Below, in pieces: positions 3,456 through 59,839 of a stretch of 64,000 bases of DNA. The stretch is from Minisyncoccia bacterium. Its GTDB lineage: Bacteria; Patescibacteriota; Minisyncoccia; Phycocordibacterales; Phycocordibacteraceae. Both the position numbers and the translations under genes were made by a program. Each line of letters starts with the position of its first letter. Within the stretch, counting starts at the first letter, position 1. Below the pieces are notes generated by a model. The model was not told the DNA's origin and made no database searches. It saw nothing but the letters and a program-made list of their open reading frames with translations. The stretch covers positions 64,442-128,441 of the forward strand of contig JBBRPE010000003.1 of NCBI GenBank assembly GCA_038228545.1. Reading direction: 5' to 3'.

Positions 3456-3952
3456 AGAAATTTGTCGTGATATTTGTACTGGTTTTCTTTTTTATAGCTC
3501 TTCTCGGAGCAATCTTGTTTAAAGTGCTGTCTCCGGGGACACAGCCCAAAAAGCAAGCAACGACTACCTTCCCTACCGCTACGGGAATTTCGTATACGTC
3601 AGTTTCAAACACGCCTGATGCAGTAGCAAAAACATGTGTTAGCTGGTACGTGCAAGCGGAAAACGTGGCACTCGATGACTATGAAAAAGGTATCGAAAGC
3701 TGTTTTACTCCTACCTTTTATAAAAGCTGGGATAGTATTCGCGATGATACAGGCCAGGACCCGGTGCTGTACTCACATACCTACACTCCTAGCTGGTTAA
3801 CGAAGCAAACTGCATCTATAAAAACTCAAACAGACACTGAAAGTACGGTATCTGTCACACTCGGCAACGGCACTACTGCGCTTATGGTAGACGTACAACT
3901 TGAGAAGACGAGTAACGGTTGGCGTATCACAAACGTTACTGAATCGAAGTAG
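3452..3952 (+). CDS. Hypothetical secreted/membrane-anchored protein
   Basis: N-terminal hydrophobic helix followed by a Thr/Ser-rich region. Start overlaps the miaA stop. Confidence 0.5.
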   Translation: MKKFVVIFVLVFFFIALLGAILFKVLSPGTQPKKQATTTFPTATGISYTSVSNTPDAVAKTCVSWYVQAENVALDDYEKGIESCFTPTFYKSWDSIRDDTGQDPVLYSHTYTPSWLTKQTASIKTQTDTESTVSVTLGNGTTALMVDVQLEKTSNGWRITNVTESK

Positions 3953-5027: not shown

Positions 5028-5029
5028 TA

Positions 5030-5563
5030 TTACGGGAGCTTCACCGCTCCTGGACAGAAACTAAGTCCGACCGGGTCGGTGCCATAGGTATCACTCAATC
5101 CCGGACCTGCTGAAACATAAGTGTCGAGCGCACAAAGCACTGGATTAGATAGTTTGAGTGTGGTGCGCAATGCGTCTTCTGCAGCTATTCTCGTCGCTCC
5201 GAGAGGTTCCGCAAGAAGTGTAACAAGCACGCGTGCCTTACCTCCATTTTGGGCCGGAGGTACATAAGTTATAAGAAAAGTAGAATACTCTGAGCCTGCA
5301 ACACGATACCCGGACACCGGATCTGCCCATGCGGGCTGGTCTATTTTTGTAAAATCAGGAACTGCTACTTTTGACCCATCGCTCAGAACGATAGTGAGCT
5401 GGTTACCAACGGGTATTACACTGCTCCCAAGACCTCCAAAGGGAGAGGTCGTTGCTGTACCGGATGTGACGGGTGAATACGTTTTTTTAATCAGCCAGTA
5501 CATTCCGAATACGGCGAATACCACGAGAAGTACTGCCAACCCTATAGCCAGCGGCTTATTCAT
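5030..5563 (-). CDS. Hypothetical membrane-anchored protein
   Basis: One N-terminal TM helix. Lies between the two pilin-hydrolase fusion genes and is probably in the same operon. Confidence 0.5.
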   Translation of the reverse strand: MNKPLAIGLAVLLVVFAVFGMYWLIKKTYSPVTSGTATTSPFGGLGSSVIPVGNQLTIVLSDGSKVAVPDFTKIDQPAWADPVSGYRVAGSEYSTFLITYVPPAQNGGKARVLVTLLAEPLGATRIAAEDALRTTLKLSNPVLCALDTYVSAGPGLSDTYGTDPVGLSFCPGAVKLP

Positions 5564-5587
5564 AAAAAAATTGTATCATGCATGATT

Positions 5588-6631
5588 TTAGCGAGCCTGA
5601 CATCTTGGGTCGGACGACCTTGCTCCTGGAACTGCGCAACGAGTCGCCGAGCATTGCCATGCAGAAAGATTCTGTGTGTACAGACTACAGGCCACCTGTG
5701 TGTTAGTTTGACCATTTTGGGCGGCCGAAACACAGTCCTGATAGAGACGTTCCTTACCGGGTACAACCGAGGAGTCACATCCACCGAGTCGTTGACCCGC
5801 ATAGTGGAGCGCGTTTCCCTCGCATCTTTGTGTAAACGCAGTCGTACAGGCTATACCGTTCACTCTAAGGGGCGAGGTTGTGAGGTTAATCTGCCAGAGC
5901 CCAACAGAGTAGCTCCGCCCGTTACCACGATCCAATTTATCCGAGGTGGAAAGGATGGCGACTTGTCCGCCCGCACTCTCGAGATTGCAAGTTCTTGACG
6001 CTGCTTCTCCAAGAGCTGCGAAGCAAGTACTGGATAGACTCTGCACACTACACGCTCCGCTTGCAGGAAGAGTACAACTCCCTCCACCCCCCACTCCACC
6101 AAAACCACCTCCTCCACTTCCAGCGTTCGTGCCTCCCACGACGCCATTTGCAATACTTCCGAATAGTCCTGGGATTACTGTCGTCTCCCTCGGTTGTATA
6201 CACCAGGAGCCTGCCGCTGCAGGAGAGAGAATTTTATTCCACGGACCATAGGAACTTTCGTTGTAGAGCGTCTTCATGATGAAGTCTACGAACAGCCAGG
6301 CAGCAAGAACGATGAACATACCAATAACGACATTCAGTAACATACTCTTCGCCTTACTGCGCATTTCGGGATTTGTCGGATTGAGCATCATACTTGCGCC
6401 TGCGTAGGCTGCGACAAGAACGAATGCAATAACCCCAATGGAAACGGCCGCATTCATAAGGTTCTGAATGAGTTGCAGTACACCTCCGTAATCACACGGA
6501 CATGCGGTGCACTCCGTCGGAACTATTGAAAAGGTTGGGTCAAGAAGCGATAAATTTGCGGCATACACGGGAAGAGCCGCGCTTACAAAAAGAGTAAGCG
6601 AGAGAGAAGTAACCAGGAGAGCCCTACGCAT
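5588..6631 (-). CDS. Secreted fusion protein: T4SS-pilin-like N-domain, Gly-rich linker, C-terminal lytic transglycosylase-like (GH23/SLT-like) domain
   Basis: Start set at MRRALLVTSLSLTLFVSAALPVYA (signal peptide). IVPTECTACPCDYG plus two TM helices are paralogous to 3996..5027. Linker is GSGGGGFGGVGGGGS. The C-terminus has ES…(30 aa)…GLWQIN and HYAG, which resemble the SLT catalytic E-S and GLMQ/AYNAG motifs. Confidence 0.6.
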   Translation of the reverse strand: MRRALLVTSLSLTLFVSAALPVYAANLSLLDPTFSIVPTECTACPCDYGGVLQLIQNLMNAAVSIGVIAFVLVAAYAGASMMLNPTNPEMRSKAKSMLLNVVIGMFIVLAAWLFVDFIMKTLYNESSYGPWNKILSPAAAGSWCIQPRETTVIPGLFGSIANGVVGGTNAGSGGGGFGGVGGGGSCTLPASGACSVQSLSSTCFAALGEAASRTCNLESAGGQVAILSTSDKLDRGNGRSYSVGLWQINLTTSPLRVNGIACTTAFTQRCEGNALHYAGQRLGGCDSSVVPGKERLYQDCVSAAQNGQTNTQVACSLYTQNLSAWQCSATRCAVPGARSSDPRCQAR

Positions 6632-6814
6632 ACTTGTATTGTAGCCTCTCAGAAGGCCCTGGCACTGCTTTGTTCCCACCTTATAAATCTGCTAAGGTAG
6701 CCAAGAGGAAGCTCAAATTCGCTTCGCTCGGGCCATATGCGTTGCTTGCACGTATATGAACCCTTCGTTCGGCGGATTACACTGAATCCTGATTCAATGT
6801 ACTCACCTCACTCA

Positions 6815-6885
6815 GGGTCCATAGTTTAGTGGTAGAACATCGGTCTCCAAAACCGATAGTGTAGGTTCGATTCCTACTGGGCCCG
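6815..6885 (+). tRNA. tRNA-Trp (anticodon CCA)
   Basis: Cloverleaf readable by hand. Acceptor gggtcca/tgggccc with discriminator g. Anticodon loop ctCCAaa. T-arm ggttcgattcc. CCA is not encoded. Confidence 0.8.
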
Positions 6886-6932
6886 CAAATAGAAAAGCGC
6901 CATTCGGCGCCTTTTCTATTTGCGGGCCCAAG
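6886..6932 (+). terminator. Perfect 20-bp-stem hairpin downstream of tRNA-Trp
   Basis: gggcccgcaaatagaaaagcgcc-attc-ggcgccttttctatttgcgggccc. The stem re-uses the tRNA 3' end. Confidence 0.5.
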
Positions 6933-7006
6933 CAAACCTGGGAGGTTTGCTTGTAGGAATCGAAGATGTTGCGGAGAAATGGAGGAAATGGGGTCAGGAA
7001 ATGGGG

Positions 7007-7684
7007 TCAGCCACCATTCTTTTTCGGACGTCCGACTGTCCGGAGAGTTTGCTCGAGACCGTGTCTCTTCACCATGGTATCAAGCCACACGTCGTTCCCA
7101 AACGGAATACTCTTTCTTTCAGACTGTTCGAGTGCTTCTTCTTCGCTTGGGGTCTGCGGCTCGTCGAGCCATGCAAGATAGTCAGGGGGAGAGGATACGG
7201 GCCAGGCTGAGAGGAGTTTCTGTTGTTGTGCAGTACCACTTTCTCTTCGCCAGGCACTTCCCCACCTCCACTGTGGTGCACTCTTTACCAAGTTTGCTTT
7301 CTTAGCGTTTCGCTCAACGTATCTAACCAGAGTTAGAAAATACTTGTCCTCTCCACAGAGAAAGGACTTGTAGCGTCCCTGATACAGATGACCTTCGCCG
7401 ACCGTTCCTTTTGCGATATGCCATCGGCGGGTATGAGTGTTGGTGACCCAAGACATGAATTTCGAGAGATCGCCGTCTTCTTTCGGGTACAGGACAAGAT
7501 GCCAGTGATTGGGCATGAGGCAATACGCGAGTATGCGCATATCGAAGGTTTCTGCTGCTTCTTCCAGGATGGTCTCGAACATGCGATAGTCGTCAGGAGT
7601 GTCGAAAATCTGAGCACGGACATTGGCGCGATTAAGGACGTGATATACATGTTTTCCCACGTCGACACGTTCGATGCGTGGCAT
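7007..7684 (-). CDS. Y1 (HUH) transposase, IS200-like / REP-associated tyrosine transposase-like
   Basis: HuH motif in YCLMPNHWHLVL and conserved HVYHVLNRANVRAQIF. At 225 aa it is longer than classic IS200 TnpA, so it may be RAYT-like. Confidence 0.7.
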   Translation of the reverse strand: MPRIERVDVGKHVYHVLNRANVRAQIFDTPDDYRMFETILEEAAETFDMRILAYCLMPNHWHLVLYPKEDGDLSKFMSWVTNTHTRRWHIAKGTVGEGHLYQGRYKSFLCGEDKYFLTLVRYVERNAKKANLVKSAPQWRWGSAWRRESGTAQQQKLLSAWPVSSPPDYLAWLDEPQTPSEEEALEQSERKSIPFGNDVWLDTMVKRHGLEQTLRTVGRPKKNGG

Positions 7685-7789
7685 GCAGTAAGGGTATCAC
7701 GGGGAAATGGTGGCTGACCCCATTTATCCGAAGAAACTTCTGCGAGCATTTTGTGATTCTGAGAGCAAAATCCGCAAAGTGGACAGCGA

Positions 7790-7818
7790 GTGTAGCTCGA
7801 GTTTCCTACTGGGCCCGC
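7790..7818 (+). pseudogene. tRNA-Trp 3'-fragment duplicate (pseudo-tRNA)
   Basis: agtgtagctcgagtttcctactgggcccgc versus the tRNA 3' part agtgtaggttcgattcctactgggcccgc. Confidence 0.55.
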
Positions 7819-7892
7819 GACCGAGCCGAGTGACGACGAGGCGAGAGTTGTGACCGCAGAGGGCCCAAGCAGGCGTGGGGCGCCTGCGTGTA

Positions 7893-8008
7893 GGAATCGA
7901 AAGGCGCAGGCCGGGTAGGCCGAGCCGGGGTCGACCAAAATCGCAGCAGCGATTTATGGGTGACTGATGCCTGCCTGATTCTTATCAGGACACTTCCTAC
8001 TGCCCACT
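7893..8008 (+). repeat. tRNA-flank structured repeat, copy A
   Basis: Has ggaatcgaaa…ggggtcgaccaaaat-[hairpin aaatcgc/agca/gcgattt]-atttatgggtgactgatgcctgcctgattcttatcaggacac. Ends with a degenerate tRNA-Trp 3' end (ttcctactgcccac). Paralogous to copies at 44143-44260 and 43555-43680. Confidence 0.6.
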
Positions 8009-17505: not shown

Positions 17506-17578
17506 GCGCCCATAGCTCAGCTGGTAGAGCAGATCCCTCTTAAGGATAAGGTCCCTGGTTCGAGCCCAGGTGGGCGCA
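17506..17578 (+). tRNA. tRNA-Lys (CTT)
   Basis: gcgccca…ctCTTaa…ggttcgagcc…tgggcgca. Followed by a terminator hairpin at 17591-17620. Confidence 0.75.
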
Positions 17579-17854
17579 CATGAAAGAAAACACTGCGTCT
17601 GCACGCAGTTTTTCTTTACATGTGCGAGGCGGAGTCATGTTTTCATTCCCCTGAAAACGGACGAGCCCGGGTCGGGGTTGCGAGCTAATTTGTAAATCCT
17701 GGAACAAATGAGCCGCAAACCGTGACCACAAGTGCGCCCACGCAGACGTGGGGTCGCGGAATCACGTCCCATGCAAGGCAACAAATCACCTAATCTGCTA
17801 CGATACACACATGCCCCTGGGGCGGAATCGGTAGACGCGAATTGGAAGTAAAGT

Positions 17855-17935
17855 GCGGGGATGGCGAAATGGTAGACGCGCCTGCCTTAGGAGCAGGTCC
17901 CTTCGGGGGTGGAGGTTCAAGTCCTCTTCCCCGCA
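17855..17935 (+). tRNA. tRNA-Leu (TAG)
   Basis: Long variable arm (ggtcccttcgggggt). Anticodon loop ctTAGga. T-arm ggttcaagtcc. Confidence 0.75.
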
Positions 17936-17995
17936 CTTTGTTTCGAATAGCCTGCCGCGGGACGTAGATGAAGTGGGGCTTCATCTACGCGCACT

Positions 17996-18046
17996 GGTCC
18001 CTTCGGGGGTGGAGGTTCAAGTCCTCTTCCCCGCACTTTGTTTCCA
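17996..18046 (+). pseudogene. Duplicate of the 3' 44 nt of tRNA-Leu(TAG) plus 9 nt of flank
   Basis: Identical ggtcccttcgggggtggaggttcaagtcctcttccccgcactttgttt. Preceded by a perfect 10-bp hairpin (gtagatgaag-tgggg-cttcatctac). Confidence 0.55.
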
Positions 18047-18125
18047 ATAGCTAATAAGCACAAAAGAAAGACGCCGTACGGCGTCTTGTGCGTTCCGGGG
18101 CAAACAGTCAGTATCTAGCGGATAC

Positions 18126-20273: not shown

Positions 20274-20633
20274 CTAGCGGCCCTGTGTAGTGTAGGGAGC
20301 GGTTGGATACGTCGGTGTGGATGGGTTGAGGTTGAAGGTACCAATAAGAATGTGTACCAAGCCCCAAACCGAGACCATGACAAAGAAGCCGATGAGACCC
20401 CAGAGCATGAGTTGCTTGCCGCTTTCACGCTTCTCTTCATCATGTCCGCCCTGAATGAAGTACTGGAAGATACCCCAGATGAAGACGATGAATGCGAGTG
20501 CGAAAACGATAGGCACCGCGACGTTGTTGATAAGGTCGATAACTATTCTGCTCGCATCGTTGACGCTGTTCACCTGCGCGAAGGCAAGGAACGGGAGAGC
20601 AAAGGCAGCACCGATATAGCCGATTTTCTTCAT
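20274..20633 (-). CDS. T4SS-pilin-like (TrbC/VirB2-like) protein
   Basis: Signal peptide (…LAFA|Q). Two TM helices flank the GGHDEEKRESGKQLMLWG motif. Confidence 0.65.
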   Translation of the reverse strand: MKKIGYIGAAFALPFLAFAQVNSVNDASRIVIDLINNVAVPIVFALAFIVFIWGIFQYFIQGGHDEEKRESGKQLMLWGLIGFFVMVSVWGLVHILIGTFNLNPSTPTYPTAPYTTQGR

Positions 20634-20736
20634 AATGTGTGATTAGTATAACCGCGTAGGTTCTCCTATAGGATAGCGCGAGGGCGAGTTCCGTCAATGG
20701 AATACGGGGCGCTATGTGGAAAACAAAGGAATCTCG

Positions 20737-21267
20737 TTACGGAGGCGTTGGATTGGAGTTAATGATGGTTGTACCTGAATTACTTGGTGCTGGTGTTTGT
20801 GTCGCACCACTCGATGGGAGTGTTGTCTGTGTCTGGGCTGCAGGAGCGTTCGACTGATTAAACACCGGGTACTGCGGACGAACGGCAGAACTGAGGCCGA
20901 GCGTGCCGTTTATGACATTAATCAAGCCCCATACGGAAAGCATGATAACGAACCCGATAAGTCCCCACAGGAGAAGTTGCTGGCCTTCCTTACGCTTCTC
21001 TTCATTACTGCCACCGAGGATGAAGTAACGGTAGATACCGACGATGAAGACAACGAATGCAAGAGCAAAAACAATAGGAACAACAATACTATCGATGAAC
21101 GAGATGCCGCAATTGAGAAACGTGCCGAGATTCGTAATGTCGCAACGTCCGGTGCCGCCGGGTGCAAATGGGTCCGTTGGTGCGGCGTAGGCCAGCTGTG
21201 TGAATCCGAGAAATGCCACTGAAACGAGTGCAAACAGGCGAGCGATAAGAATACGGAAAGATGTCAT
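20737..21267 (-). CDS. T4SS-pilin-like (TrbC/VirB2-like) protein
   Basis: Same core (VVPIVFALAFVVFIVGIYRYFILGGSNEEKRKEGQQLLLWGLIGFVIM). C-terminal Thr/Pro/Ser-rich tail. Start taken at MTSFRILIARL. Confidence 0.6.
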   Translation of the reverse strand: MTSFRILIARLFALVSVAFLGFTQLAYAAPTDPFAPGGTGRCDITNLGTFLNCGISFIDSIVVPIVFALAFVVFIVGIYRYFILGGSNEEKRKEGQQLLLWGLIGFVIMLSVWGLINVINGTLGLSSAVRPQYPVFNQSNAPAAQTQTTLPSSGATQTPAPSNSGTTIINSNPTPP

Positions 21268-21309
21268 ATATATGAAGCGTACCAAGGACGGATAATCGAG
21301 CAAGCTAAG

Positions 21310-21645
21310 TTATGCACTGGTGCCAAGAAGAGTCGTGACGAGGATTTTAATTATTCCCCACACACTGAAGATAATGACCATCCCAACCATGGCCCATATG
21401 ATGAAACCGCGGCCTTGCTCCCGATTCTCTGCTCCGCCCGTAAAGAAATACCGAACGATGCCGATAACCAAGAATAGGAACGCGAGTGAATACAAGAGAG
21501 GAATAACACCCGTGTCAACGAGCGGGACTATCTTCTGGTCTACGAGCTGCTGAAACGTCAGGCCGGCTGTGCTTGTGGTGGCAAAGACCGGAAGTGCTGT
21601 CGTAAGGAGTGCGCCAAGCCCAATAAGCCTCTGTACAATTTTCAT
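21310..21645 (-). CDS. T4SS-pilin-like (TrbC/VirB2-like) protein
   Basis: Signal peptide plus core (LAFLFLVIGIVRYFFTGGAENREQGRGFIIWAMVGMVIIF). Confidence 0.65.
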   Translation of the reverse strand: MKIVQRLIGLGALLTTALPVFATTSTAGLTFQQLVDQKIVPLVDTGVIPLLYSLAFLFLVIGIVRYFFTGGAENREQGRGFIIWAMVGMVIIFSVWGIIKILVTTLLGTSA

Positions 21646-22103
21646 GAGCCAAGACCGGCAACGGTCGCAGTAATAACTACTTCAATGGCTTTCGCCCCGA
21701 GCAAAATAAGTCCACCAATGAGCGTCCATATGAGAGCGCTACGTGCTTTCGATATTTCTTCCGGATTACCTCGGGCAAGAACGAATAGGAATCCGACGTA
21801 TACGAGCATGACAACGAGAAGTACAGAACCGAGCTCAACGACCGCACCAAGTATTGCATCTATGAGTTTCGGTAGACTATCAATATTGCCAAGTGGGTTC
21901 TGCAGCACTGCGGTGCTGCCATCAGAAGCCGGGTTACCTGTTACTGGTGTTGCGGGATTCCCTGTGACGGGAGTGGCAGGATTACCAGTTACCGGAGTCG
22001 GTTCAGCATGAGCAATTGGAGCTGAAATACAGAAAACGGCGAATGCTAGTGTAGCGAGACTTACTACGACAATGTGTGATGAGGAAGTGCGAAGAGTACT
22101 CAT
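21642..22103 (-). CDS. T4SS-pilin-like (TrbC/VirB2-like) protein with tandem PVTGNPAT repeats
   Basis: Signal peptide. EPTPVTGNPATPVTGNPATPVTGNPA occurs three times. Core LLVVMLVYVGFLFVLARGNPEEISKARSALIWTLIGGLILL. Start overlaps the upstream gene (ATGA). Confidence 0.65.
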   Translation of the reverse strand: MSTLRTSSSHIVVVSLATLAFAVFCISAPIAHAEPTPVTGNPATPVTGNPATPVTGNPASDGSTAVLQNPLGNIDSLPKLIDAILGAVVELGSVLLVVMLVYVGFLFVLARGNPEEISKARSALIWTLIGGLILLGAKAIEVVITATVAGLGS

Positions 22104-26841: not shown

Positions 26842-27234
26842 CTAAAAATGAATGACGGTCGCGTCTGACGAAGACTGTCCACTATCGAGTGTCGAGTGCA
26901 CTTGCGTGTCTACGATAGTGATGGCGGTAGGCGAGGAGGTGGCGCCTACAGCGGCGCCTGCGGCGCCGACAAGCTGTGAAAAACTATTTGAATTCTGCGT
27001 AATCGCCTCTTTAAAATTCGGTGCATTCTGATCGGTCGAAGCGAATGTCGACGGAGCGAGCGAGAACGTGCCACCAAGTGCGTTTGCAGCAAACCACCCG
27101 AGTGCAACGACAAGTGTAACGCCACCAGCTACACCCAAGGCGATATTCTGACGCACATGGAGTGGCTTCTGGCGGAGGTCGTGCACTACTTCATGGACGC
27201 GCTTTGTTTCCATACTGTTACGGGGTAATAACAA
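26842..27234 (-). CDS. Hypothetical membrane-anchored protein
   Basis: One TM helix (IALGVAGGVTLVVALGWF). Ala/Ser-rich. Confidence 0.4.
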   Translation of the reverse strand: MLLPRNSMETKRVHEVVHDLRQKPLHVRQNIALGVAGGVTLVVALGWFAANALGGTFSLAPSTFASTDQNAPNFKEAITQNSNSFSQLVGAAGAAVGATSSPTAITIVDTQVHSTLDSGQSSSDATVIHF

Positions 27235-29377: not shown

Positions 29378-30508
29378 ATGGAAACAGAAGAGAAGAAAGC
29401 TGCCCCAGTGGTAGCGTCTACGATAGTTATTGACCCGAGCCACCCGATGGCAGGGCTGATTGACTCTATCCCTACCCCACCTCGCCCAGGCGACTTGGTA
29501 GAAGGAACAATCATCGAGCTCGTCCGCGGCCGCCTCTTTGTCGACTTGCCACCGTTCGGCACCGGCATCATTTACGGACGTGAGTACCTCAACGCTGCTG
29601 ATGTGCTTCGCAAGGCAAACCCTGGCGACACCATTACGGCAAAGGTCGTTGACCCAGCAGGTATCGAAGGCTATATCGAACTTTCTCTCAAGGAAGCTCG
29701 TCAGGCAGCTATCTGGGGAGAGGCCGAGCAGGCTATCGCAGGCCAGGTGGTCTACAACCTCGTCGTTGAGGAAGCAAACAAGGGTGGACTCATCCTCTCA
29801 TGGCAGGGTATCCAGGGCTTCCTCCCTGCTTCCCAGCTCTCGAAGGACCACTACCCACGTGTACCAGAGGGCGACAAGGATAAGATTTTCGGTGAGCTCT
29901 TGAAGCTCGTCGGTGTCGCACTCCCGGTCCGCATCATTACCGCTGAGCCAAAGGAAGGTAAGCTCATCTTCTCTGAGCGCGCAGGTGATGAAGAGCAGGA
30001 AAAGGCAAACCTTATCGACAAGTACCAGGTTGGTGACGAAGTCACGGGCGAGGTTACGGGTGCTGTCGACTTCGGTGTCTTCGTTAAGCTCGAGCAGGGT
30101 CTTGAAGGACTCGTGCACATCTCTGAGCTCGACTGGGGCCTCGTGGAAGACCCACGCGCACTCTTCACGGTCGGTGACCAGGTGAAGGTCAAGGTTATTG
30201 AAATCAAGGACGGAAAGATTTCCCTCTCCATCAAGGCACTCAAGGAGAATCCTTGGAAGACCGCTTCTGACCGTTACACGAAGGGCATGGAAGTAAATGG
30301 CGTTATCATCAAGTACAACAAGCACGGTGCACTCGCTTCCATCGAGGAAGGTGTTGCCGGCCTTGTACACATCAGCGAGTTCGCTTCCCCAGTGGAGCTC
30401 CGCGAGACGCTTGAGCTTGGTAAGAGCTATCCGTTCTCCATTACCCTCTTTGAGCCAAAGGACCAGAGGATGACGCTTGCGTACTCGGGACCGAAGGGCA
30501 AAAAATAG
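29378..30508 (+). CDS. rpsA: 30S ribosomal protein S1 (four S1 domains)
   Basis: Repeated S1 RNA-binding domain pattern (GxV.G.V…G.FV.L..g.eGLvHiSE). Confidence 0.8.
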   Translation: METEEKKAAPVVASTIVIDPSHPMAGLIDSIPTPPRPGDLVEGTIIELVRGRLFVDLPPFGTGIIYGREYLNAADVLRKANPGDTITAKVVDPAGIEGYIELSLKEARQAAIWGEAEQAIAGQVVYNLVVEEANKGGLILSWQGIQGFLPASQLSKDHYPRVPEGDKDKIFGELLKLVGVALPVRIITAEPKEGKLIFSERAGDEEQEKANLIDKYQVGDEVTGEVTGAVDFGVFVKLEQGLEGLVHISELDWGLVEDPRALFTVGDQVKVKVIEIKDGKISLSIKALKENPWKTASDRYTKGMEVNGVIIKYNKHGALASIEEGVAGLVHISEFASPVELRETLELGKSYPFSITLFEPKDQRMTLAYSGPKGKK

Positions 30509-30682
30509 CTCCGCTCGCATAGCGAACAGAACCGCAGCCCGACACTCAGGTGTCGGGTTTTGCGTTGTCTCCTCGTGGCGGAATTTCCCTAGAGCGCTTC
30601 GCTAGTCGGGAAATTCCTTCTCGGCTCTGCGCAAAACTACTCTGCCTTCGGAATAGCGGTTCTGTTCGCTACGCTCGCTCCG
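30509..30682 (+). repeat. Structured intergenic repeat, family X copy 1
   Basis: Starts at the rpsA stop. Outer helix tagcgaacagaaccgc/gcggttctgttcgcta. Terminator-like hairpin cccgacactcaggtgtcggg+tttt. Inner stem ggaatttccc/gggaaattcc around the conserved tagagcgcttcgctagtcgg. Paralog at 41429-41578. Confidence 0.65.
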
Positions 30683-30825
30683 TGAGGTAGATAAGAAAAA
30701 TGAGGAAACCTCGCTTTTCCTCAGTACAGGGTGTCTGGTACGACGTGGGAACCGCGATACTTGACCAAAGGAAATATTAGTATTATAGTTTCCCCACGTT
30801 TACGGGTTTCTTAGAGGAGATTCTG

Positions 30826-33196: not shown

Positions 33197-33501
33197 TGCC
33201 GCCATAGTAGCATCTGCGCCCACCTCGCTCATCTTGTGTTATCAAACACAAACTACTGCGGTGACCACCGAGATCGCTAGGATCGCTGACACGACACACT
33301 TGGCAAAATAGACCATCATCAACTTGTGACGACCGTCACAAGTTGATGATGGTCCGGAATAGTAAATAGTGGTGGAAGACAGCGGACGGTCGTGGATAAC
33401 ATGGGCACGACGGAACGAATGTGTACGGCACTAAAGTTGTTTAGCCGAAGTTGAAGTTGTTCGAACTGGAGTACTTGGCGAAGTTGGAAATTGTCGATGC
33501 G

Positions 33502-39513: not shown

Positions 39514-39594
39514 ACCGGCAACAAAAAGAAATCCCGCTTTGCGGGATTTCTTTTTACACAGGTCAAGTCAACTTAACTTTGCTATACTGCGCAC

Positions 39595-41176: not shown

Positions 41177-41327
41177 CTTATGCAGCCGCCTCGTCAGTCT
41201 CCTCAGCAGGCATGTCGGTAGCAACTTCTTCTGCTTCCGTACCCTCTTCCATAGGATCAGCGGCAACGCCGTCCTTCATTTCATCGTCCATCATAGTGAT
41301 TTGGGAGAACAGCTCATTCCTTGGCAT
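41177..41327 (-). CDS. Small acidic protein (50 aa)
   Basis: Not in the 6-frame track. MPRNELFSQITMMDDEMKDGVAADPMEEGTEAEEVATDMPAEETDEAAA, followed by the terminator. No RBS checked. Confidence 0.3.
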
Positions 41328-41428
41328 AAACCAAAAAATAAAGCCGTCCAATTAAATTGGCTGGCAATCGACCTACCTCTGAAGTGTACCGTCCTGAGTA
41401 TGGGAATGCAATGAAGCTTCATTCGTAA

Positions 41429-41578
41429 GCAAGAAAGGTCCGCAGCCCGACACTCAGAAGTCGGGTTTTGCGTTGTCGTCTCCTAGCGAAATATGCCTAG
41501 AGCGCTTCGCTAGTCGGCATATTTCTTCTCGACTCTGCGCAAAACTACTCTGTCTTCGGAATAGCGGACCTTTCTTGC
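41429..41578 (+). repeat. Structured intergenic repeat, family X copy 2
   Basis: Outer helix gcaagaaaggtccgc/gcggacctttcttgc. Same conserved core as X1. Inner stem gaaatatgcc/ggcatatttc compensates relative to X1. Confidence 0.65.
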
Positions 41579-41628
41579 ATACTCATTCCGTACTGAACTT
41601 TAGCCATGAGAACGGAGCGAGCGGTCTT

Positions 41629-41775
41629 GAAATAAAAGAATTTCCTGTAAGCAGCCGTAGAATACGAAGCCAGCGAGGTGAGTCATCCGACCGAGGTCTT
41701 CGAGTGGCGGTGCGAGCCGATGGCTGGCGACTTATTCTACGTGTCGCCCTGGAAGGCGGAGTCCTCTTTTATTTT
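41629..41775. repeat. Intergenic repeat, family Y copy 1
   Basis: gaaataaaaga…[long imperfect hairpin ccgtagaata…tattctacg]…tcttttattt. About 95% identical to 56211-56346. Sits immediately 3' of the ATP-grasp gene stop. Confidence 0.6.
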
Positions 41776-42979
41776 AAGATTGCGAGCGGAGCACCATATC
41801 CCAAATAAGTGCCGCTACATTCCGTGGTTCCCCCTCAAACGGCAAATGATGATTATCGAAAAACGGCATTGAATTACATTCGATTACTCCGCATCGCTCC
41901 TGTTCCTTCCAGGACTTCGTAATGTCGTCGATGATGAAATCAATGCCCACAATTGATGCCTTAAGCACCCGCGCCACTTCTTCAAAGAGTTCCGCGTTGT
42001 CCGGATGTACGTCATCAGTAACGTCAGCCGTCGTACCTCCGACGCCCCAGTTTATTTTTTGATTGAGTAGTACTTTCTGGCAGTTTTCAGGAATACTGGA
42101 AAAGGTCATCTTTTGCCAAGCAAGCTCTTTTTCTGCATTGTCATCGAGCTTCATCTGGTGGAAATACGGTCCACTACGCTTCGGGTTCTTATTCGCTTCT
42201 TCTACGAGTTCAGCCACGGTGTGCGTGCCGTCACCAATAACGTATGGCTGGTCACGCCGCAGTGTTGCTGCCAGTTTTCCATCGACAACGGTCGCGCGAT
42301 ATACCGGGCCCACCAGCTCCTCTTCTATGACGGCTGCAGGGCAAATTTGAGTAGCAATCTTAAACGCGCGTTGGAGTTCTTCAAGAGAATCAATGTGCAA
42401 TAGCGTGTGGCGAGAGCCGGAACCGGAATACGGCTTCACAATAACAGGTGGTGTAAGTCCGTTATATATCTTCTTGGCTGCCCACCAATTACTTGCTGAG
42501 CCTCCGCGGGCGACCGGCAGTCCCAGCTTTGAGAAATGTTTCTTAAGAAGTGCTTTATTATCCAGCCATTGAACACGTTGTATAGAGCGCGGTGGAAGCG
42601 GTATACCCTCGTACACTATCTTCTTCCCATCGGGCAATCGCGCCATAAATATATTGCGCGGTAGATTAAAAAGACGTACTTCTTCTATCTGAATTCCACG
42701 AGTATCAGCTTCCTTCCATAACATGAGCGCAAGAAGTTGTGTGCTGTCGTCGGGCCGAGAGATGCGTGTGGCCCAGCCAAGACGCATAAAAAGCTCAAGC
42801 AAGTATGGCGTGAGAGCACGCTCTATGGCGGACGCTCCTTTGCCAAGCACGACCCCGACAAAGCCTGGGTCAAACATGGCGCGCATCGAATCATCGATGA
42901 GAATCGTGTAGTACGTCATCCCGTGAAAGATAGGATCGCCACCGCACTCGGCACACGCTTTTGCTTGAGGCATATTCAT
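41774..42979 (-). CDS. ATP-grasp domain protein (RimK/cyanophycin-synthetase-like ligase)
   Basis: C-terminal half has ATP-grasp pattern (VIVKPYSGSGSRHTLL…VIEEELVGPVYRATVVDGKL…GVIECNSMP). Confidence 0.5.
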   Translation of the reverse strand: MNMPQAKACAECGGDPIFHGMTYYTILIDDSMRAMFDPGFVGVVLGKGASAIERALTPYLLELFMRLGWATRISRPDDSTQLLALMLWKEADTRGIQIEEVRLFNLPRNIFMARLPDGKKIVYEGIPLPPRSIQRVQWLDNKALLKKHFSKLGLPVARGGSASNWWAAKKIYNGLTPPVIVKPYSGSGSRHTLLHIDSLEELQRAFKIATQICPAAVIEEELVGPVYRATVVDGKLAATLRRDQPYVIGDGTHTVAELVEEANKNPKRSGPYFHQMKLDDNAEKELAWQKMTFSSIPENCQKVLLNQKINWGVGGTTADVTDDVHPDNAELFEEVARVLKASIVGIDFIIDDITKSWKEQERCGVIECNSMPFFDNHHLPFEGEPRNVAALIWDMVLRSQS

Positions 42980-43554: not shown

Positions 43555-43680
43555 CAGTTGCGGAGAGGGAGAGATGTGTCCTCACAAGAATGAGGCACGC
43601 ATCGGTCACAGATATTTTTCTGCTGAAAAATTCCGCGACCCCGCCTCGGCGCCGGCGCGCCTCCGGCTTTCGAATCTCCC
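43555..43680 (-). repeat. tRNA-flank structured repeat, copy C
   Basis: Minus strand reads gggagattcgaaa…gcggggtcgcgg-[hairpin atttttc/agca/gaaaaat]-…gtgaccgatgcgtgcctcattcttgtgaggacac. Then atctctccctctccgca, a copy of the tRNA-Ser 3' end. Confidence 0.6.
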
Positions 43681-43746
43681 ACGTCCAGTCCCCAACTGGA
43701 CTCCTCTCCACAAATGAAAAGACCCGCCTGTGCGGGTTTTCATTTG

Positions 43747-43833
43747 CGGAGAGGGAGAGATTCGAACTCTCGGTACAGTTTCCCATACGCCACATTTCGA
43801 GTGTGGTGCCTTCGACCACTCAGCCACCTCTCC
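43747..43833 (-). tRNA. tRNA-Ser (CGA)
   Basis: Long variable arm. Anticodon loop cuCGAaa. T-arm gagagttcgaatctctc. A terminator hairpin (cccgcacaggcggg) follows on the minus strand. Confidence 0.75.
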
Positions 43834-44070: not shown

Positions 44071-44142
44071 TGAGACACGAGCCGCCGCAAGGCGGTTTTG
44101 TGCTACATGGTCCCACGAGCACGATGTGGGACATCGTGCGGG

Positions 44143-44260
44143 GGAATCGAAACGCGGAGCCGTGTCGACGGCGAGCGGGGGTCGACCAAAATTGTAGCAA
44201 CGATTTATGGGTGACCGATGCGTGCCTGATTCCTATCTGGACACTTCCCCGTGGGATCAC
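44143..44260 (+). repeat. tRNA-flank structured repeat, copy B
   Basis: ggaatcgaaa…gggggtcgaccaaaat-[hairpin aaattg/tagcaa/cgattt]-atttatgggtgaccgatgcgtgcctgattcctatctggacac. Then ttccccgtgggatcac, a copy of the tRNA-Glu 3' end. Confidence 0.6.
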
Positions 44261-46069: not shown

Positions 46070-46142
46070 GCGCGGTTAGCTCAGTTGGTAGAGCGCGTCA
46101 TTGACGTTGACGATGTCGGGGGTTCGAATCCCTCACCGCGCA
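46070..46142 (+). tRNA. tRNA-Val (GAC)
   Basis: gcgcggt…cgtcaTTGACGTtgacg…ggggttcgaatccc…accgcgc a. Anticodon GAC. Confidence 0.75.
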
Positions 46143-46237
46143 CAAAACGAAGTCGCCTCAAGCGTAAGCTTGGGACTGCTATCGTTTTGCAGTAGCGGTG
46201 AGAGATTCGAAAACCGTGCGACTGAATCCCAGTATTT

Positions 46238-55797: not shown

Positions 55798-56178
55798 TTA
55801 TAGGTGGAACCAGCCAAGTACCTTCCTCCACCAGGGGAGTACGGGCGTACTGGTCGCCACCTTCGGTGGCACCACGATAATAACGCTCTCGCCTGGCTTC
55901 GCAACGCCGTAGGTTTCTCGGAGCACTGCTTCCTGACCCCGCTCCGTATTCTGCTCAGCTAAATTTGTTTTCAGCGATACTTCGCGTGTCTGCAAACTGG
56001 CAAGCTCTGCCTTCGTGTCAGCAACTGCGTGACGAGCTATCTCCTCTTTTCGGATAATCCCGAACAAAAGCCAGAGTAACCACAGCACAAGGATAGTCAT
56101 CAGTCCCGCAATAACGTACTCACTCATTCTTCGTCTACTAACGCGTCGTGGCATGGCTCTCAGTATACCAACCCTCAT
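55798..56178 (-). CDS. Septum formation initiator (FtsB/DivIC-like)
   Basis: TM, then coiled coil, then C-terminal YGVAKPGESVIIV motif. Confidence 0.5.
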   Translation of the reverse strand: MRVGILRAMPRRVSRRRMSEYVIAGLMTILVLWLLWLLFGIIRKEEIARHAVADTKAELASLQTREVSLKTNLAEQNTERGQEAVLRETYGVAKPGESVIIVVPPKVATSTPVLPWWRKVLGWFHL

Positions 56179-56210
56179 CCTCCCTCGAGCGAGGGAGTGC
56201 GAAATAAAAG

Positions 56211-56346
56211 ACTCTCTGGAAGCAGCCGTAGAATAGGAAGCCAGCGAGACGAGTCATCCGACCGAGTTCTTCGAGTGGCGGTGCGAGTCGATGGCTGGCG
56301 ACTTATTCTACGTGTCGCCCTGGAAGGCGAAGTTTTCTTTTATTTC
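56211..56346. repeat. Intergenic repeat, family Y copy 2
   Basis: gaaataaaaga…ccgtagaata…tattctacg…tcttttatttc. Lies 18 nt downstream of the lepA stop on the minus strand. Confidence 0.6.
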
Positions 56347-56364
56347 GTACACCCGAGCGACTTT

Positions 56365-58155
56365 TTAGCGTTCGCTGTCTTGAACCATTTTCATAAAGAC
56401 TTCTTGCGGTATCTCCATAGATGCATGCGCACCACGACGCTTTTTTCCCTTCTTTTGCTTCTCGAGGAGCTTCATACGACGGGTAATATCACCTCCGTAG
56501 AGATAACCGGTGACGTCTTTGCGAAGTGCCGAGATGGACCGCGACGAAATAATGCGTCCGATAGCGTGTGCCTGAATCTTCACGACGAACATCTGGCGCG
56601 GAAGAATATCATGGAGTTTCTCTACCATGCGTTCCCCTTCTTCTTGTACACGACGACGGGAAACCACACGTGCAAATGCCGGAACCGCTTCCTCCGCAAC
56701 ATATATCTCCAGCTTCACGACATCAGCAACGCGTTCTTCAAGAAACTCGTACGAAAGAGAAGCATATCCGGACGAGACGTTCTTTACCTTATCGAAGAAT
56801 CCGCGCATGAGTTCACGTAACGGCATCTGTGCTGCGAGCTCGATGCGACCATCAAGATGCGTCTGTGTATCCATAACGGCGCCCTCGTGATCATGGAACA
56901 CTTGCAATAGCCCCGAAAGAGATTCCGGTGGCGTAATGAGTACGACTTTCACCCAAGGCTCTTCAATCGTTTGAATATCGCCAAACGCGGGAAACTTGGA
57001 AGCAGTATAAATAGTTTCTCGCTTCCCTTTCGTATCGGTCACGATGTACGCAATGGTAGGAATGGTGACGATGAGTGAGAGGTCAAACTCGCGTTTCAAA
57101 CGCTCGACGATAATTTCCAAGTGGAGCATGCCGAGGAAACCACAGCGGAAACCACGGCCAAGCACACCCGAAGATTCTTCCTCAAACGAGAGGGATGAGT
57201 CCGAAAGACGGAGGCGTTCGAGGGCCTGACGCAGCTCGGTGAGCGTGTCCTGATTCTCGGGGTAGACTGAGGCCCACACTACCGGACGAGGGCGCTCAAA
57301 GCCTTCCAGAGCGCCTACAGAGGCCCTATCCGAGGTAATGGTGTCTCCCACAGCGACGACGCCTGCCTCCTTAATACCGGTAACAATATAGCCGATTTCT
57401 CCCGCCTCGAGACCTTCCGTCGGGGTTTCGTCCGGCATGAATATGCCCGTCTCAAGGGCTGTGAATTTCTTGTCAGCAAAGGCAAATTTAAGGGCAGAGC
57501 CTTTCTTAACGGAGCCATCAAACACGCGGGCGTACACCGCGATACCACGATGCGTTGAGTAGGAGAAATCAAAAATGAGTGCGCGTGGTTCGGTCGAAGT
57601 ACTTGGACGTGGAGCAGGTACACGAGCAAGTATTGCCTCAAGCAAGTCTTCAACACCTTCACCCGTGCGACCGGAAACAGCGAGCACACTTTCTTCGTCT
57701 ACTCCGAGAAGCGCCGCAAGCTCCGTGGTTACTTCCTCCGGACGAGCAGCGGGTGCATCAATCTTCGAAATAACCGGAATAATGACGCAGCCCGCTTTCT
57801 TTGCCATCCCAAGTGTGGTGAGCGTCTGTGCCTGGACGCCCTGTGTAGAATCAACGAGCAGGATAACACCCTCCACTGCCGAAAGAGCACGTGAGACTTC
57901 GTACGCAAAATCGATGTGTCCCGGTGTGTCGATGAGGTTCAGTACGTAGTCGATGCCATCTTTACCTTTGTACTTCATGCGCGCTGGCTGCATCTTAATC
58001 GTGATACCGCGCTCGCGCTCAAGGTCCATTTTGTCGAGCACCTGGTCGCGCATTTTACGTGCTTCGATGGTGCCGGTACGTTCAAGAAGCCGGTCCGCGA
58101 GGGTCGACTTGCCGTGATCGATATGAGCAATGATTGAGAAGTTTCGGATATTCAT
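56365..58155 (-). CDS. lepA: Elongation factor 4
   Basis: NFSIIAHIDHGKSTLADRLL. Full-length LepA architecture including the unique C-terminal domain. Start set at MNIRNF. Confidence 0.9.
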   Translation of the reverse strand: MNIRNFSIIAHIDHGKSTLADRLLERTGTIEARKMRDQVLDKMDLERERGITIKMQPARMKYKGKDGIDYVLNLIDTPGHIDFAYEVSRALSAVEGVILLVDSTQGVQAQTLTTLGMAKKAGCVIIPVISKIDAPAARPEEVTTELAALLGVDEESVLAVSGRTGEGVEDLLEAILARVPAPRPSTSTEPRALIFDFSYSTHRGIAVYARVFDGSVKKGSALKFAFADKKFTALETGIFMPDETPTEGLEAGEIGYIVTGIKEAGVVAVGDTITSDRASVGALEGFERPRPVVWASVYPENQDTLTELRQALERLRLSDSSLSFEEESSGVLGRGFRCGFLGMLHLEIIVERLKREFDLSLIVTIPTIAYIVTDTKGKRETIYTASKFPAFGDIQTIEEPWVKVVLITPPESLSGLLQVFHDHEGAVMDTQTHLDGRIELAAQMPLRELMRGFFDKVKNVSSGYASLSYEFLEERVADVVKLEIYVAEEAVPAFARVVSRRRVQEEGERMVEKLHDILPRQMFVVKIQAHAIGRIISSRSISALRKDVTGYLYGGDITRRMKLLEKQKKGKKRRGAHASMEIPQEVFMKMVQDSER

Positions 58156-58156
58156 G

Positions 58157-59839
58157 TTACGTGTCAGAGCGATCTTCAAGAATAGCTCCATGTGGCTGAA
58201 GCGCCTTTGTGGAGGTGAGGCGCTTTAAGGAATCAATGAGTTCTTTGAATTCCTGATTCTCGAGAAGTGCAAGGACTGCGGCGGCGACGGCTAGCCCCAC
58301 CATACCAGCAACAGCACCCTCAAGGAAGACGGTCGTGAGACGAGTGAGCGGAGCAAGGGTACCCATAAATGAGAGTACGCCGTAGCTTGCTGTGCCTCCC
58401 AAAATTGCCGCTCCGAAGCCTTCAAACATAGGACGCACGAGCGAGCCCGCTACACCGGGCGCGACCGTACGTAGTGTTATAAGAGCAACCAGACCCATAA
58501 GTACCTGCCCTATCGTTGCTCCAAGTGCGATGAAAAGAATGCTGGTACCCGGTACATCTCCCACACGGAACAATGCTTCAAGGAAGTAACGAATGGCGGG
58601 ATAGTGCGAAGCCAGCGCAACAAGACCCCATGCTGACGCAACCGAAATACCACAGTCAGCAAGCTGCACCAGGAGCGGATTCCAGGATTTCTGCGCAGCA
58701 TAGAACGCTCGAGCAGCGAGAAGTATGAGCCCTTGCGCCATGAGTCCAACGACGAGGATAGCGAGTACTGCCGCAGTGAGGCGTGTGTCATTCCAATCGA
58801 ACGCGCCTGAGCCAAGAATGATACGCACAATATACGCGCGCATCACGATAGTGAGCACCGTAATGACTGCTGACCAGAAGATAATGTGACGCGCTGCCGC
58901 AGTGAGCGTTGTTTTAAACTCTCCGAATCGCTTCGCACTAATATGTTCTGCAAGCACGGGGAACGCGGCTGTGGCGTACGACGCACCAATAAGCGAGAGT
59001 GGCACTGCCTCAAGATTTCCTGCAAGCGTATATACCGAGACTCCACCGGATGAGGTGCGTGATGCAAGCGAAATCAAGAGAAGTGTAATGACAGAACTCA
59101 TACCAAGCGCCATGGAGCGCGGTACCGAGCTTTTCATCACGGACCACATTATTGCAGGCGACGGAATAACCAGTCGTGGCAAGAGCTTAGCTTGCATCAC
59201 TACCGGAATGTGAATAGCCAAGTGGAAGAACGCTCCAATCACAACACCCATGCCAATGCCAGGTAATCCGAATATCGGGTACAACACTACGGTACCGAAG
59301 ATAATGCCTACGTTGTAGAGCACTGGCGACAGGGCAAACAAAACGAATCGCCGATGTATCTGCGTCACGCTTGTGAGGATTCCCGAGAGTCCGAGGAATA
59401 TCGGCTGGATGAGAAGTAGGCGTGCGAGTAGTACGAACTCAGCGGCGTGTGCCGAATTCTTAAATGTCGGAAACAAGAGAAAGAGGAATGAAGGCGCGGC
59501 GAAGGCAAGCACCCCACAGATTATTCCTCCGCCGATAAGTAGGAACGACGCGCAGTGTGAGAGTAATTTCTTTGCGTCACCGGTGTCTGCTTTGGCAATA
59601 CGCGGAATGAGTACGTATGCCGAGACTAACGACGCGACCAACGCAAATACGACGTCCGGCACCTTGAAGGCGGCGTAGTAGAGGTCGAGTATTTCCCCTG
59701 CCCCAAACTGGTGTGCAAAGAGACGGTCGCGAAACAACGCGAGCGCTTGGGACACCAGTGTTAGGGCTGCAAGCAAGTACGCGGCCTGATGTAGGCCGCG
59801 TACCGGGGATACTAATGTCTTCAGTATCCTGCTAACCAT
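58157..59839 (-). CDS. murJ: Lipid II flippase MurJ (MviN)
   Basis: 14-TM MOP-superfamily pattern. N-terminal AFKVPDVVFALVASLVSAYVLIP. Confidence 0.8.
   Translation of the reverse strand: MVSRILKTLVSPVRGLHQAAYLLAALTLVSQALALFRDRLFAHQFGAGEILDLYYAAFKVPDVVFALVASLVSAYVLIPRIAKADTGDAKKLLSHCASFLLIGGGIICGVLAFAAPSFLFLLFPTFKNSAHAAEFVLLARLLLIQPIFLGLSGILTSVTQIHRRFVLFALSPVLYNVGIIFGTVVLYPIFGLPGIGMGVVIGAFFHLAIHIPVVMQAKLLPRLVIPSPAIMWSVMKSSVPRSMALGMSSVITLLLISLASRTSSGGVSVYTLAGNLEAVPLSLIGASYATAAFPVLAEHISAKRFGEFKTTLTAAARHIIFWSAVITVLTIVMRAYIVRIILGSGAFDWNDTRLTAAVLAILVVGLMAQGLILLAARAFYAAQKSWNPLLVQLADCGISVASAWGLVALASHYPAIRYFLEALFRVGDVPGTSILFIALGATIGQVLMGLVALITLRTVAPGVAGSLVRPMFEGFGAAILGGTASYGVLSFMGTLAPLTRLTTVFLEGAVAGMVGLAVAAAVLALLENQEFKELIDSLKRLTSTKALQPHGAILEDRSDT

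Follow-up and report, generated by a model that had tools for sequence, protein, structure and literature searches.

The window analysed here is a stretch of 64,000 nucleotides (nt) from contig JBBRPE010000003.1 of a Minisyncoccia bacterium (Patescibacteriota), in which two copies of a non-coding hairpin repeat, Y1 and Y2, and two copies of a related repeat, X1 and X2, are found at the 3' ends of genes (Table 1). Y1 begins within the last codons of a gene for an ATP-grasp protein and meets X2 tail to tail, both being followed by a hairpin and T-run resembling an intrinsic terminator; Y2 fills the interval between lepA and a divIC-like gene, and X1 follows a gene for an S1-domain protein. A first-pass annotation of this DNA had described Y as a hairpin element of about 140 nt, about 95% identical in its two copies and lying directly 3' of stop codons, and had likened it to REP, BIME or ERIC elements or to a miniature inverted-repeat transposable element (MITE). 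Loci and contigs from relatives, labelled L followed by a three-digit number, were used for comparison.

Both Y copies lie where that annotation had placed them, and the near-identity which it reported holds at slightly lower values: 93% over 130 ungapped nt, or 91.8% over 146 nt by blastn. Its length of about 140 nt applies to an inner unit of 146 nt, which is bounded by an 11-nt inverted repeat (GAAATAAAAGA / TCTTTTATTTC; exact in Y2, with one mismatch in Y1) and contains the inner hairpin described, with arms of 19 nt that are 84% complementary (56227-56245 and 56294-56312 in Y2); the whole element, as set by homology to relatives and by a covariance model, is longer, extending over about 184 nt. 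None of 200 dinucleotide shuffles was as stable as the Y copies on either strand, the folding z-scores being -3.1 to -4.4. The homology ends a few bases beyond the 11-nt inverted repeat and the flanks of the two loci do not align; being confined to the unit, it does not form part of a larger segmental duplication, a possibility which the annotation had itself raised, and the termini are 58% identical as against 90% for the core. A profile of the Y1 and Y2 pair (nhmmer) found no third Y copy in the window. The 146-nt Y unit is a recently copied inner part of the ~184-nt non-coding element.

The non-coding status of Y has been established from several sides. One frame of the plus strand is open across both copies, giving the pseudo-peptide RVAVR.DGWRLILRVALEG, which has no homologue among 5.8 billion proteins and no Pfam match; the open reading frames (ORFs) spanning Y are artefacts of the nucleotide repeat, as had been proposed, and Y does not code for protein. 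The scan of the window against Rfam at gathering thresholds gave no match over Y, and at E<=10 the sole match over the Y1/X2 region (41350-41850) was a chance one of 12.6 bits to a norovirus element. Promoter-like sites were absent from the Y1 locus, while the three at the Y2 locus are all at a distance of over 120 nt, within divIC or past it. A role of Y as a conserved intrinsic terminator was ruled out, since the single match to a terminator pattern falls on the strand opposite to the genes, does not exceed shuffle expectation and is missing in those relatives that have closing stems not rich in T.

The position of the elements relative to the genes is precise. An element that comes directly after a gene is always in gene-sense orientation, as seen after the S1-domain gene, lepA (in the window, L024 and L016), gyrB, ftsZ and the ATP-grasp gene, and its 5' end is no more than about 2 nt from the stop codon of the S1-domain gene, lepA, gyrB and ftsZ. 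For the inner units, the distance of 0-18 nt from a stop codon given by the first-pass annotation is correct: the ATP-grasp stop (41774-41776, minus strand) overlaps Y1 by 2 nt and the lepA stop lies 18 nt from Y2, so that the description of a dispersed non-coding hairpin repeat directly 3' of stops is well supported. The X copy which it had noted beside Y1 was also seen, at 41440-41567. Five element sites come directly after TA(A/G), and the ATP-grasp sites after ATGGT or ATGAAG. At the ATP-grasp locus the element starts inside the gene, and the tail ...MVERG* becomes ...MVLRS(x), with LRS supplied by the 5' terminal motif. The tail ...MVERG and its close variants, found in most of 44 ATP-grasp homologues, are evidently ancestral, and the ...MVLRS(x)* tail occurs in at least four separate places of a rough, approximate neighbour-joining tree; this polyphyly suggests repeated insertion at one point of the gene.

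Downstream of the elements lie signals that are shared with relatives. The hairpin with its T-run beyond Y1 and X2, which probably serves as a terminator, is also present in relatives lacking the elements, and the 3' end of Y2 lies about 9 nt upstream of an extended -10 box that is a likely promoter of divIC, TGnTATACT-N6-7-ATG being conserved upstream of this gene in relatives. Lying upstream of the kept terminator hairpin (Y1 and X2) or of the divIC box (Y2), these elements should be transcribed as parts of 3' untranslated regions (UTRs), as far as sequence features can tell. With regard to the neighbouring genes, the divIC-like ORF as mechanically delimited (55798-56178) begins 24 nt too early, conservation placing the ATG at 56154, and the position of this ATG 8 nt after the TGGTATACT box suggests a leaderless or near-leaderless mRNA. 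Beyond the ATP-grasp terminator lies a conserved, very acidic ORF of 38-47 amino acids (MMDDEMKDG...EETDEAAA), present in every relative examined.

Comparison of orthologous sites has revealed an insertion polymorphism. Retrieval by LepA places the window in the Patescibacteria (Parcubacteria), the closest LepA being 89% identical, and the gene order lepA then divIC is conserved among relatives. In 13 close relatives the lepA-divIC junction measures only 3-37 nt and is free of elements, the lepA stop being followed almost directly by the TGnTATACT box and then by the ATG of divIC; the window has 184 additional nt at this place, precisely between the lepA stop and the box. Members of the Y superfamily occupy the junction in L024 and L016, while seven other relatives carry unrelated long palindromic elements. 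Similarly, the ftsZ stop is followed by an X copy in L082 and by a plain terminator hairpin in the window. In the window the 3' side of the ATP-grasp gene carries Y followed by X. The order is reversed, with X first, in L082 and L083; L081 has an element of a third type, V, ahead of its X, L078 has the W palindromic element and L091 nothing, the two-element sites being arranged tail to tail in several genomes. The existence of empty orthologous sites shows that Y was gained by insertion or copying, and makes the comparison with elements of the REP, ERIC or MITE type a fair one.

Moreover, the model-guided alignment shows that core identity tracks the genome and not the locus. The cores of Y1 and Y2 are 90% identical, as against 52% between Y2 and the orthologously placed copy in L024; those of X1 and X2 are 85% identical, as against 68% between X2 and its positional orthologue in L081. 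The first-position X of L082 is 84% identical to the second-position X of L081, and 79% to the first-position X of L083. The terminal 20-30 nt of each side, on the other hand, are only 53-58% identical between copies of the same genome, and over the family terminal identity is 25-60%, compared with 52-90% for the core. Since the cores are alike and the termini have diverged, the latest move must have involved the core and inner stem, that is, the 146-nt unit.

The ends of the elements carry C/T-rich motifs (5' GCTYCRYTCG, 3' GCTCRYTCCGYT) which are direct repeats of each other, and the 11-12-mers flanking Y1 are identical to those flanking X1. Comparison of the first ATP-grasp element with the empty site of L091 shows that the whole element, both motifs included, is the insert, between ATGGT and TCTAGAA. 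The unoccupied second ATP-grasp site of L078 and L091 holds a single motif copy (reverse complement GGCTTCAYTCC), and empty lepA junctions hold none, for which reason the motifs were rejected as simple target-site duplications at the lepA site. The motifs may be the ends of the element, of which one copy stays behind on deletion, or the core of a site-specific integration; at the second ATP-grasp site they may also be target-site duplications. No convincing "empty sockets" (motif, short hairpin, motif) were found. An exact copy of the 12-nt motif CGCTCGCTCCGT lies at 27051-27062 (minus strand), inside an ORF (26842-27234, 130 amino acids) without a Pfam match.

The relationship between X and Y was established by means of covariance. 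The RNAalifold consensus of six Y members comprises 54 pairs, with 85% of the cells paired and compensatory changes on both sides in 30 of the pairs. These values were reached in none of 500 column shuffles, and sliding the partners by 1-3 columns reduced pairing to 36-46% and the compensated pairs to 6-10; the conserved Y fold is thus supported by covariation. A covariance model, R1, built from the six Y members only, recovers them at 148-179 bits and also finds X repeats over their full length at 63-74 bits: X1, X2 and copies in L081, L082 and L083. It further locates the X copy directly after ftsZ in L082 and scores the lepA element of L016, a more distant member, at 45 bits. As R1 was built from Y alone and still detects the X repeats, a result with which nhmmer agrees, X and Y form one superfamily. 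Diverged Y members follow lepA (L024) and gyrB (L080), and occupy the second position after the ATP-grasp gene (L082 and L083).

In the model-guided alignment the order of parts is 5' motif, closing stem, core, CTGCYTYCRG box, second stem arm and 3' motif. The closing stem, of 12-20 base pairs (bp), is free in sequence while its pairing is kept, and the core is conserved, consisting of a small hairpin (CGCCTTCCAGGGCG), the long central hairpin and a second CTTCCAG box, and containing an ATAGTCG box; an apical box resembling CGCTTCGCT is seen in the core of X, L024 and L080. The Y member of L024 shares with those of the window the small hairpin CGCCTTCYAGGGCG, the box GGCTGCTTCCAG 88-89 nt further on and the orthologous right flank, while its closing stem and central hairpin are unlike theirs in sequence. 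More generally, the closing stems of the L024, L080, L082 and L083 members and of all X copies are entirely different from those of Y1 and Y2, though self-complementary. As to the functional strand, two measures conflict: G-U pairs exceed A-C mismatches in the gene sense (44 to 17 overall, 33 to 3 in X, a count that may be biased by the model-fitted alignment), whereas the energy of the shared structure favours the antisense strand by 10-19 kcal/mol in Y members and neither strand in X.

The distribution of the superfamily is patchy, since an nhmmer profile of all 13 members found no others in ~0.98 Mb of related DNA. No match to exact 20-mers of the Y core was obtained in GTDB representative genomes or JGI metagenomes; scanning the latter with a gapped two-box pattern gave one true relative (L080) and one chance match in a coding region (L079). 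Nothing was found in the viral contigs scanned, and no description of such elements in Patescibacteria was found in the literature. A generic census of long-range inverted repeats proved too noisy for use. Outside the window, an identical TrxB was met only in a Logan contig of 2.2 kb. The X/Y superfamily is restricted to a sub-clade of the Parcubacteria (Patescibacteria) and is previously undescribed.

The X/Y superfamily is probably a non-autonomous, structure-dependent small mobile element that rides in 3' UTRs. In this reading its cores are copied between the loci of one genome; orthologous sites are empty or hold another family member, and an element directly following a gene lies at the stop codon or over the last codons, in gene sense and upstream of the terminator or of the next promoter. 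Because the stems conserve structure and not sequence, copying would depend on a folded single strand, and a hairpin-recognising enzyme such as an HUH/Y1 transposase would fit. In the mRNA the multi-branched hairpin may form a 3'-end structure that blocks exonucleases or serves as a processing site, a role which would explain why it is tolerated, or even of slight benefit, behind highly expressed housekeeping genes. X/Y are set apart by their gene-sense placement, precise to the stop codon, by end motifs that are direct repeats and by closing stems that are perfect and yet unrelated from copy to copy.

Several points weigh against a mobile element of this kind. Neither a transposase nor any other enzyme could be connected with X/Y, and the one candidate in the window has an unrelated repeat of its own and homologues whose neighbourhoods are free of X/Y. 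There is no clear target-site duplication, the empty sites of lepA being without the motif and the empty second ATP-grasp site having one copy. The superfamily numbers four members within 64 kb of this genome, the strand tests contradict each other, the second elements of tail-to-tail pairs are antisense to the upstream gene, and transcription as 3' UTR is deduced from sequence.

A different explanation, rather doubtful on balance, is that X/Y are primarily cis-acting RNA modules of the host, acting in the 3' UTRs of housekeeping mRNAs as stabilisers, processing sites or unconventional terminators, spread and exchanged by recombination and kept by selection, not by selfish transposition. The strong covariation and conserved loops would be expected of such modules, as would the strict gene-sense orientation at the stops of lepA, gyrB, ftsZ, the S1-domain gene and the ATP-grasp gene, the location upstream of the real terminator and the sense excess of G-U pairs, above all in X. 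The same junctions, nevertheless, are element-free in most close relatives and are elsewhere taken by unrelated palindromic families; moreover, some copies run opposite to the gene upstream of them, the sense strand gives the shared fold no gain in stability and no Rfam family matches.

The presence in the window of a gene for a RAYT-like HUH/Y1 transposase has to be considered in relation to a true REP/REPIN-RAYT system, in which X/Y would be REP-type hairpins moved by that protein, an explanation that is unlikely. Among the ORFs scanned for enzymes (~40 of 72 candidates in the window), this gene is the sole candidate for a hairpin-acting enzyme. Its product matches Pfam Y1_Tnp (E 1.5e-18), with HUH and Tyr motifs (HWH and GRYKS), and its best NCBIfam match, 'REP-associated tyrosine transposase', scores 62.9 bits, under the curated cut-off of 80 (IS200 TnpA: 20.7 bits). 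As in REP/REPIN systems, the X/Y hairpins are extragenic and maintain their pairing through compensatory changes, and an inverted doublet exists at one locus. The units, however, measure ~184 nt and are three-way or branched, unlike the 20-40 nt of REPs, and the doublet, confined to the ATP-grasp locus, consists of whole elements. Furthermore, a perfect 19-nt inverted repeat, AATGGGGTCAGCCACCATT, encloses the gene; this repeat is unrelated to the dispersed X/Y and had no second site in the window and none in 84 other loci. The protein has 7,921 homologues at E<=1e-10; an identical repeat brackets homologues of 71-76% amino acid identity in other Patescibacteria, and no X/Y copies were found within 20 kb of homologues in other genomes. 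As the repeat is unrelated and unique and these neighbourhoods are X/Y-free, a link between the gene and X/Y is hypothetical. The gene itself lies directly 3' of tRNA-Trp, in a region (6815-8006) that has a further copy of the tRNA 3' end ttcctactgggcccgc at 7803-7818 and a diverged one at 7993-8006, and that looks like the product of successive insertions at the tRNA end.

It is very unlikely that Y is a classical MITE, that is, a deletion derivative of an insertion sequence with DDE transposase, terminal inverted repeats and a target-site duplication. The 11-nt inverted repeat bounding near-identical intergenic copies of ~150 nt (GAAATAAAAGA ends) recalls such elements, and the bacterial MITEs Correia, RUP and bcr1 of the Bacillus cereus group are likewise small, multi-copy, gene-adjacent and co-transcribed, with long hairpins. 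This inverted repeat, though, is not conserved in any diverged member, so X/Y have no family-conserved terminal inverted repeat, and no direct repeat, TA or other, abuts it: the adjoining bases are themselves in inverted orientation (tctt/aaga; gtg..cg/cg..cac), and direct repeats, the CGCTCG motifs, come no nearer than 5-9 nt. Neither the scanned window ORFs nor ~0.98 Mb of related loci nor the collection scans yielded a parent insertion sequence or other autonomous element with Y ends, the GTDB and JGI sets being also free of the exact core 20-mers. The REP/ERIC/MITE-like interpretation of the first-pass annotation is right in kind, as the empty orthologous sites indicate, and wrong in detail, the target-site duplication of a classical MITE being absent.

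Least probable of all is that Y represents independent small-RNA genes or protein-coding or segmentally duplicated sequence, since the stable conserved fold and the frame open in both copies are offset by the absence of Rfam matches and of promoter-like sites next to either copy (an element starting at the stop codon leaves no room for one), by a pseudo-peptide without homologue or Pfam match and by unrelated flanks.

Other known systems offer partial parallels. ERIC/IRU sequences are transcribed intergenic palindromic repeats of enterobacteria. Like Y, they are non-coding imperfect palindromes of ~130-180 nt near stops in transcribed regions, present or absent between related genomes, with no known transposase and with proposed mRNA structures. 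They differ in that the host of Y belongs to another phylum and in that Y has direct-repeat terminal motifs, a hypervariable closing stem and a strictly gene-sense orientation at the stop codon when directly following a gene; given the different phylum and the lack of an Rfam match, homology is unlikely and the likeness is one of behaviour. Rickettsia palindromic elements (RPEs) are also palindromic repeats of a reduced genome that can join a coding region, as the 5' motif of Y does in supplying LRS(x) and the stop of the ATP-grasp gene; RPEs, in contrast, insert in frame inside genes, whereas Y touches the last codons only or else comes after the stop.

IS200/IS605-type single-strand elements, including palindrome-associated elements (PATE), insert 3' of a fixed target of 4-5 nt, have subterminal hairpins and make no duplication. 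X/Y resemble them in the apparent dependence on a folded single strand, in the lack of a duplicated target on either side of the copied unit and in having similar boxes in direct orientation near both ends (in Y, the two CTTCCAG boxes and the terminal motifs). X/Y differ from them in having no definable short fixed target, a closing stem that pairs the ends and no identified TnpA/TnpB partner. Integron attC sites have inverse core RYYYAAC and core GTTRRRY at their ends, inverted, in a cassette array beside an integrase; they were ruled out, as the terminal motifs of Y are direct and not inverted and its hosts are syntenic housekeeping genes.

The unrelated palindromic families at the same stop-adjacent sites comprise W, U and a third type (L002:5742-5867, L012:7778-7901 and L078:~3781-3895; L014:7799-7892 and L018:7805-7886; L022 and L062 after lepA). 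In the W, U and L016 elements the 3' flank is complementary to the gene end of each respective genome, for example AGCGAACGA/TCGCTCGCT, GGAGCGA/TCGCTCC and TCGAAAGGG/CCCTTTCGA, which hints, speculatively, at stem construction by fold-back (template-switch) synthesis. A bolder proposal, for now a tentative one with the balance against it, is that X/Y form a new class of "stop-codon-homing" hairpin cassettes. The 3' sides of housekeeping genes would then be sockets marked by the C/T-rich direct-repeat motifs, within which structured cores would be swapped by single-strand or site-specific recombination, the closing stems being rebuilt from the flanking gene end by fold-back synthesis. Such synthesis would explain the perfect but unrelated closing stems, the flank complementarity of the W, U and L016 elements and the inverted tRNA starts of the T elements described below.

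Table 1. Coordinates of the X/Y elements, their host genes and other features (positions in the window, except where a locus of a relative is named)
Feature	Coordinates	Strand	Remarks
Y1 inner unit	41629..41775	-	From one inverted-repeat arm to the other; part matching Y2 at 90-93%
Y1 full element (~184 nt)	41609..41793	-	Full-length R1 match, 178.5 bits; 5' terminal motif, closing stem, core, 3' terminal motif
Y1 5' terminal motif	41782..41792	-	GCTCCGCTCGC; in frame, new C-terminal L-R-S of the ATP-grasp protein
Y1 3' terminal motif	41612..41623	-	CGCTCGCTCCGT; same 12-mer ends X1; 14-mer CGCTCGCTCCGTTC ends the L080 element
Y1 long central hairpin (P2)	41656..41741		Arms 41656-41674 / 41723-41741
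Y2 inner unit	56201..56346	-	Repeat alignment with Y1, nhmmer/blastn, inverted repeat
Y2 full element	56181..56364	-	R1 match, 171.8 bits; first base directly after the lepA stop
X1	30507..30686	+	R1, 74.3 bits; begins at the TAG stop of the S1-domain gene (29378-30508)
X2	41415..41594	+	R1, 62.9 bits, and nhmmer; tail to tail with Y1
ATP-grasp gene	41774..42979	-	401 amino acids; D-Ala-D-Ala-ligase-like / cyanophycin-synthetase-like; last codons and stop inside Y1
Intrinsic-terminator-like hairpin and T-run	41333..41365	-	Downstream of Y1 and X2; also in relatives without elements
lepA	56365..58191	-	Stop 56365-56367
divIC-like gene	55798..56154	-	ATG 56154; conserved extended -10 box TGGTATACT at 56163-56171
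Acidic ORF	~41180-41296	-	Relatives: L078:4036-4164; L081:11664-11792; L082:8356-8496; L083:3256-3399; L091:11331-11465
RAYT-like HUH/Y1 transposase gene	7007..7684	-	225 amino acids; perfect 19-nt inverted repeat at 7000-7018 and 7706-7724
T repeat (~180-190 nt)	44071-44258	+	After tRNA-Glu
T repeat	43573-43745	-	After tRNA-Ser
T repeat	7819-8006	+	Within the tRNA-Trp island
Long terminator-like hairpins	6878-6930, 17575-17626, 43703-43754, 39523-39555, 33311-33354, others

Further repeats are associated with the tRNA genes of the window. Each copy of the T family starts with an inverted copy of the T-arm of its tRNA (gggggaatcgaa, gggagattcgaa and gtaggaatcgaa), and at its other end the final ~15-17 nt of that tRNA recur in direct orientation; the cores shared by two of the copies (7921-7997 and 44172-44248) have an identity of 90%. 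At tRNA-Leu(tag) (17855-18051) the 3' 56 nt are repeated 100 nt downstream with 98% identity (17896-17951 and 17996-18051), an insertion-like duplication, and at tRNA-Val (46123-46211) a 17-nt inverted copy of the 3' end lies 55 nt downstream, with a small structured insert in between. The terminator-like hairpins of the window are unusually long and perfect (15-21 bp), several of them beginning inside the 3' end of the preceding tRNA, so that the gene end forms part of the stem. In addition, small paralogous proteins carrying type IV secretion pilin-like domains (PF18895) are encoded in two clusters, at 3996-6679 and 20274-22103, one of these proteins being fused to a VanY-like domain.

The Patescibacteria (candidate phyla radiation) have very small, compact genomes, usually called poor in repeats and mobile DNA, and the X/Y family has settled again and again in the short stretch that separates a stop codon from the promoter or terminator after it, where its insertion has at least once rewritten the C-terminus of a protein. 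The family thus offers a handle on the survival of mobile DNA in streamlined genomes, on the origin of 3' UTR structures and on the reasons why short-read assemblies of these organisms break at certain gene ends. Finally, if cassette exchange or fold-back synthesis were true, these elements would constitute a natural example of RNA hairpins created by template switching.

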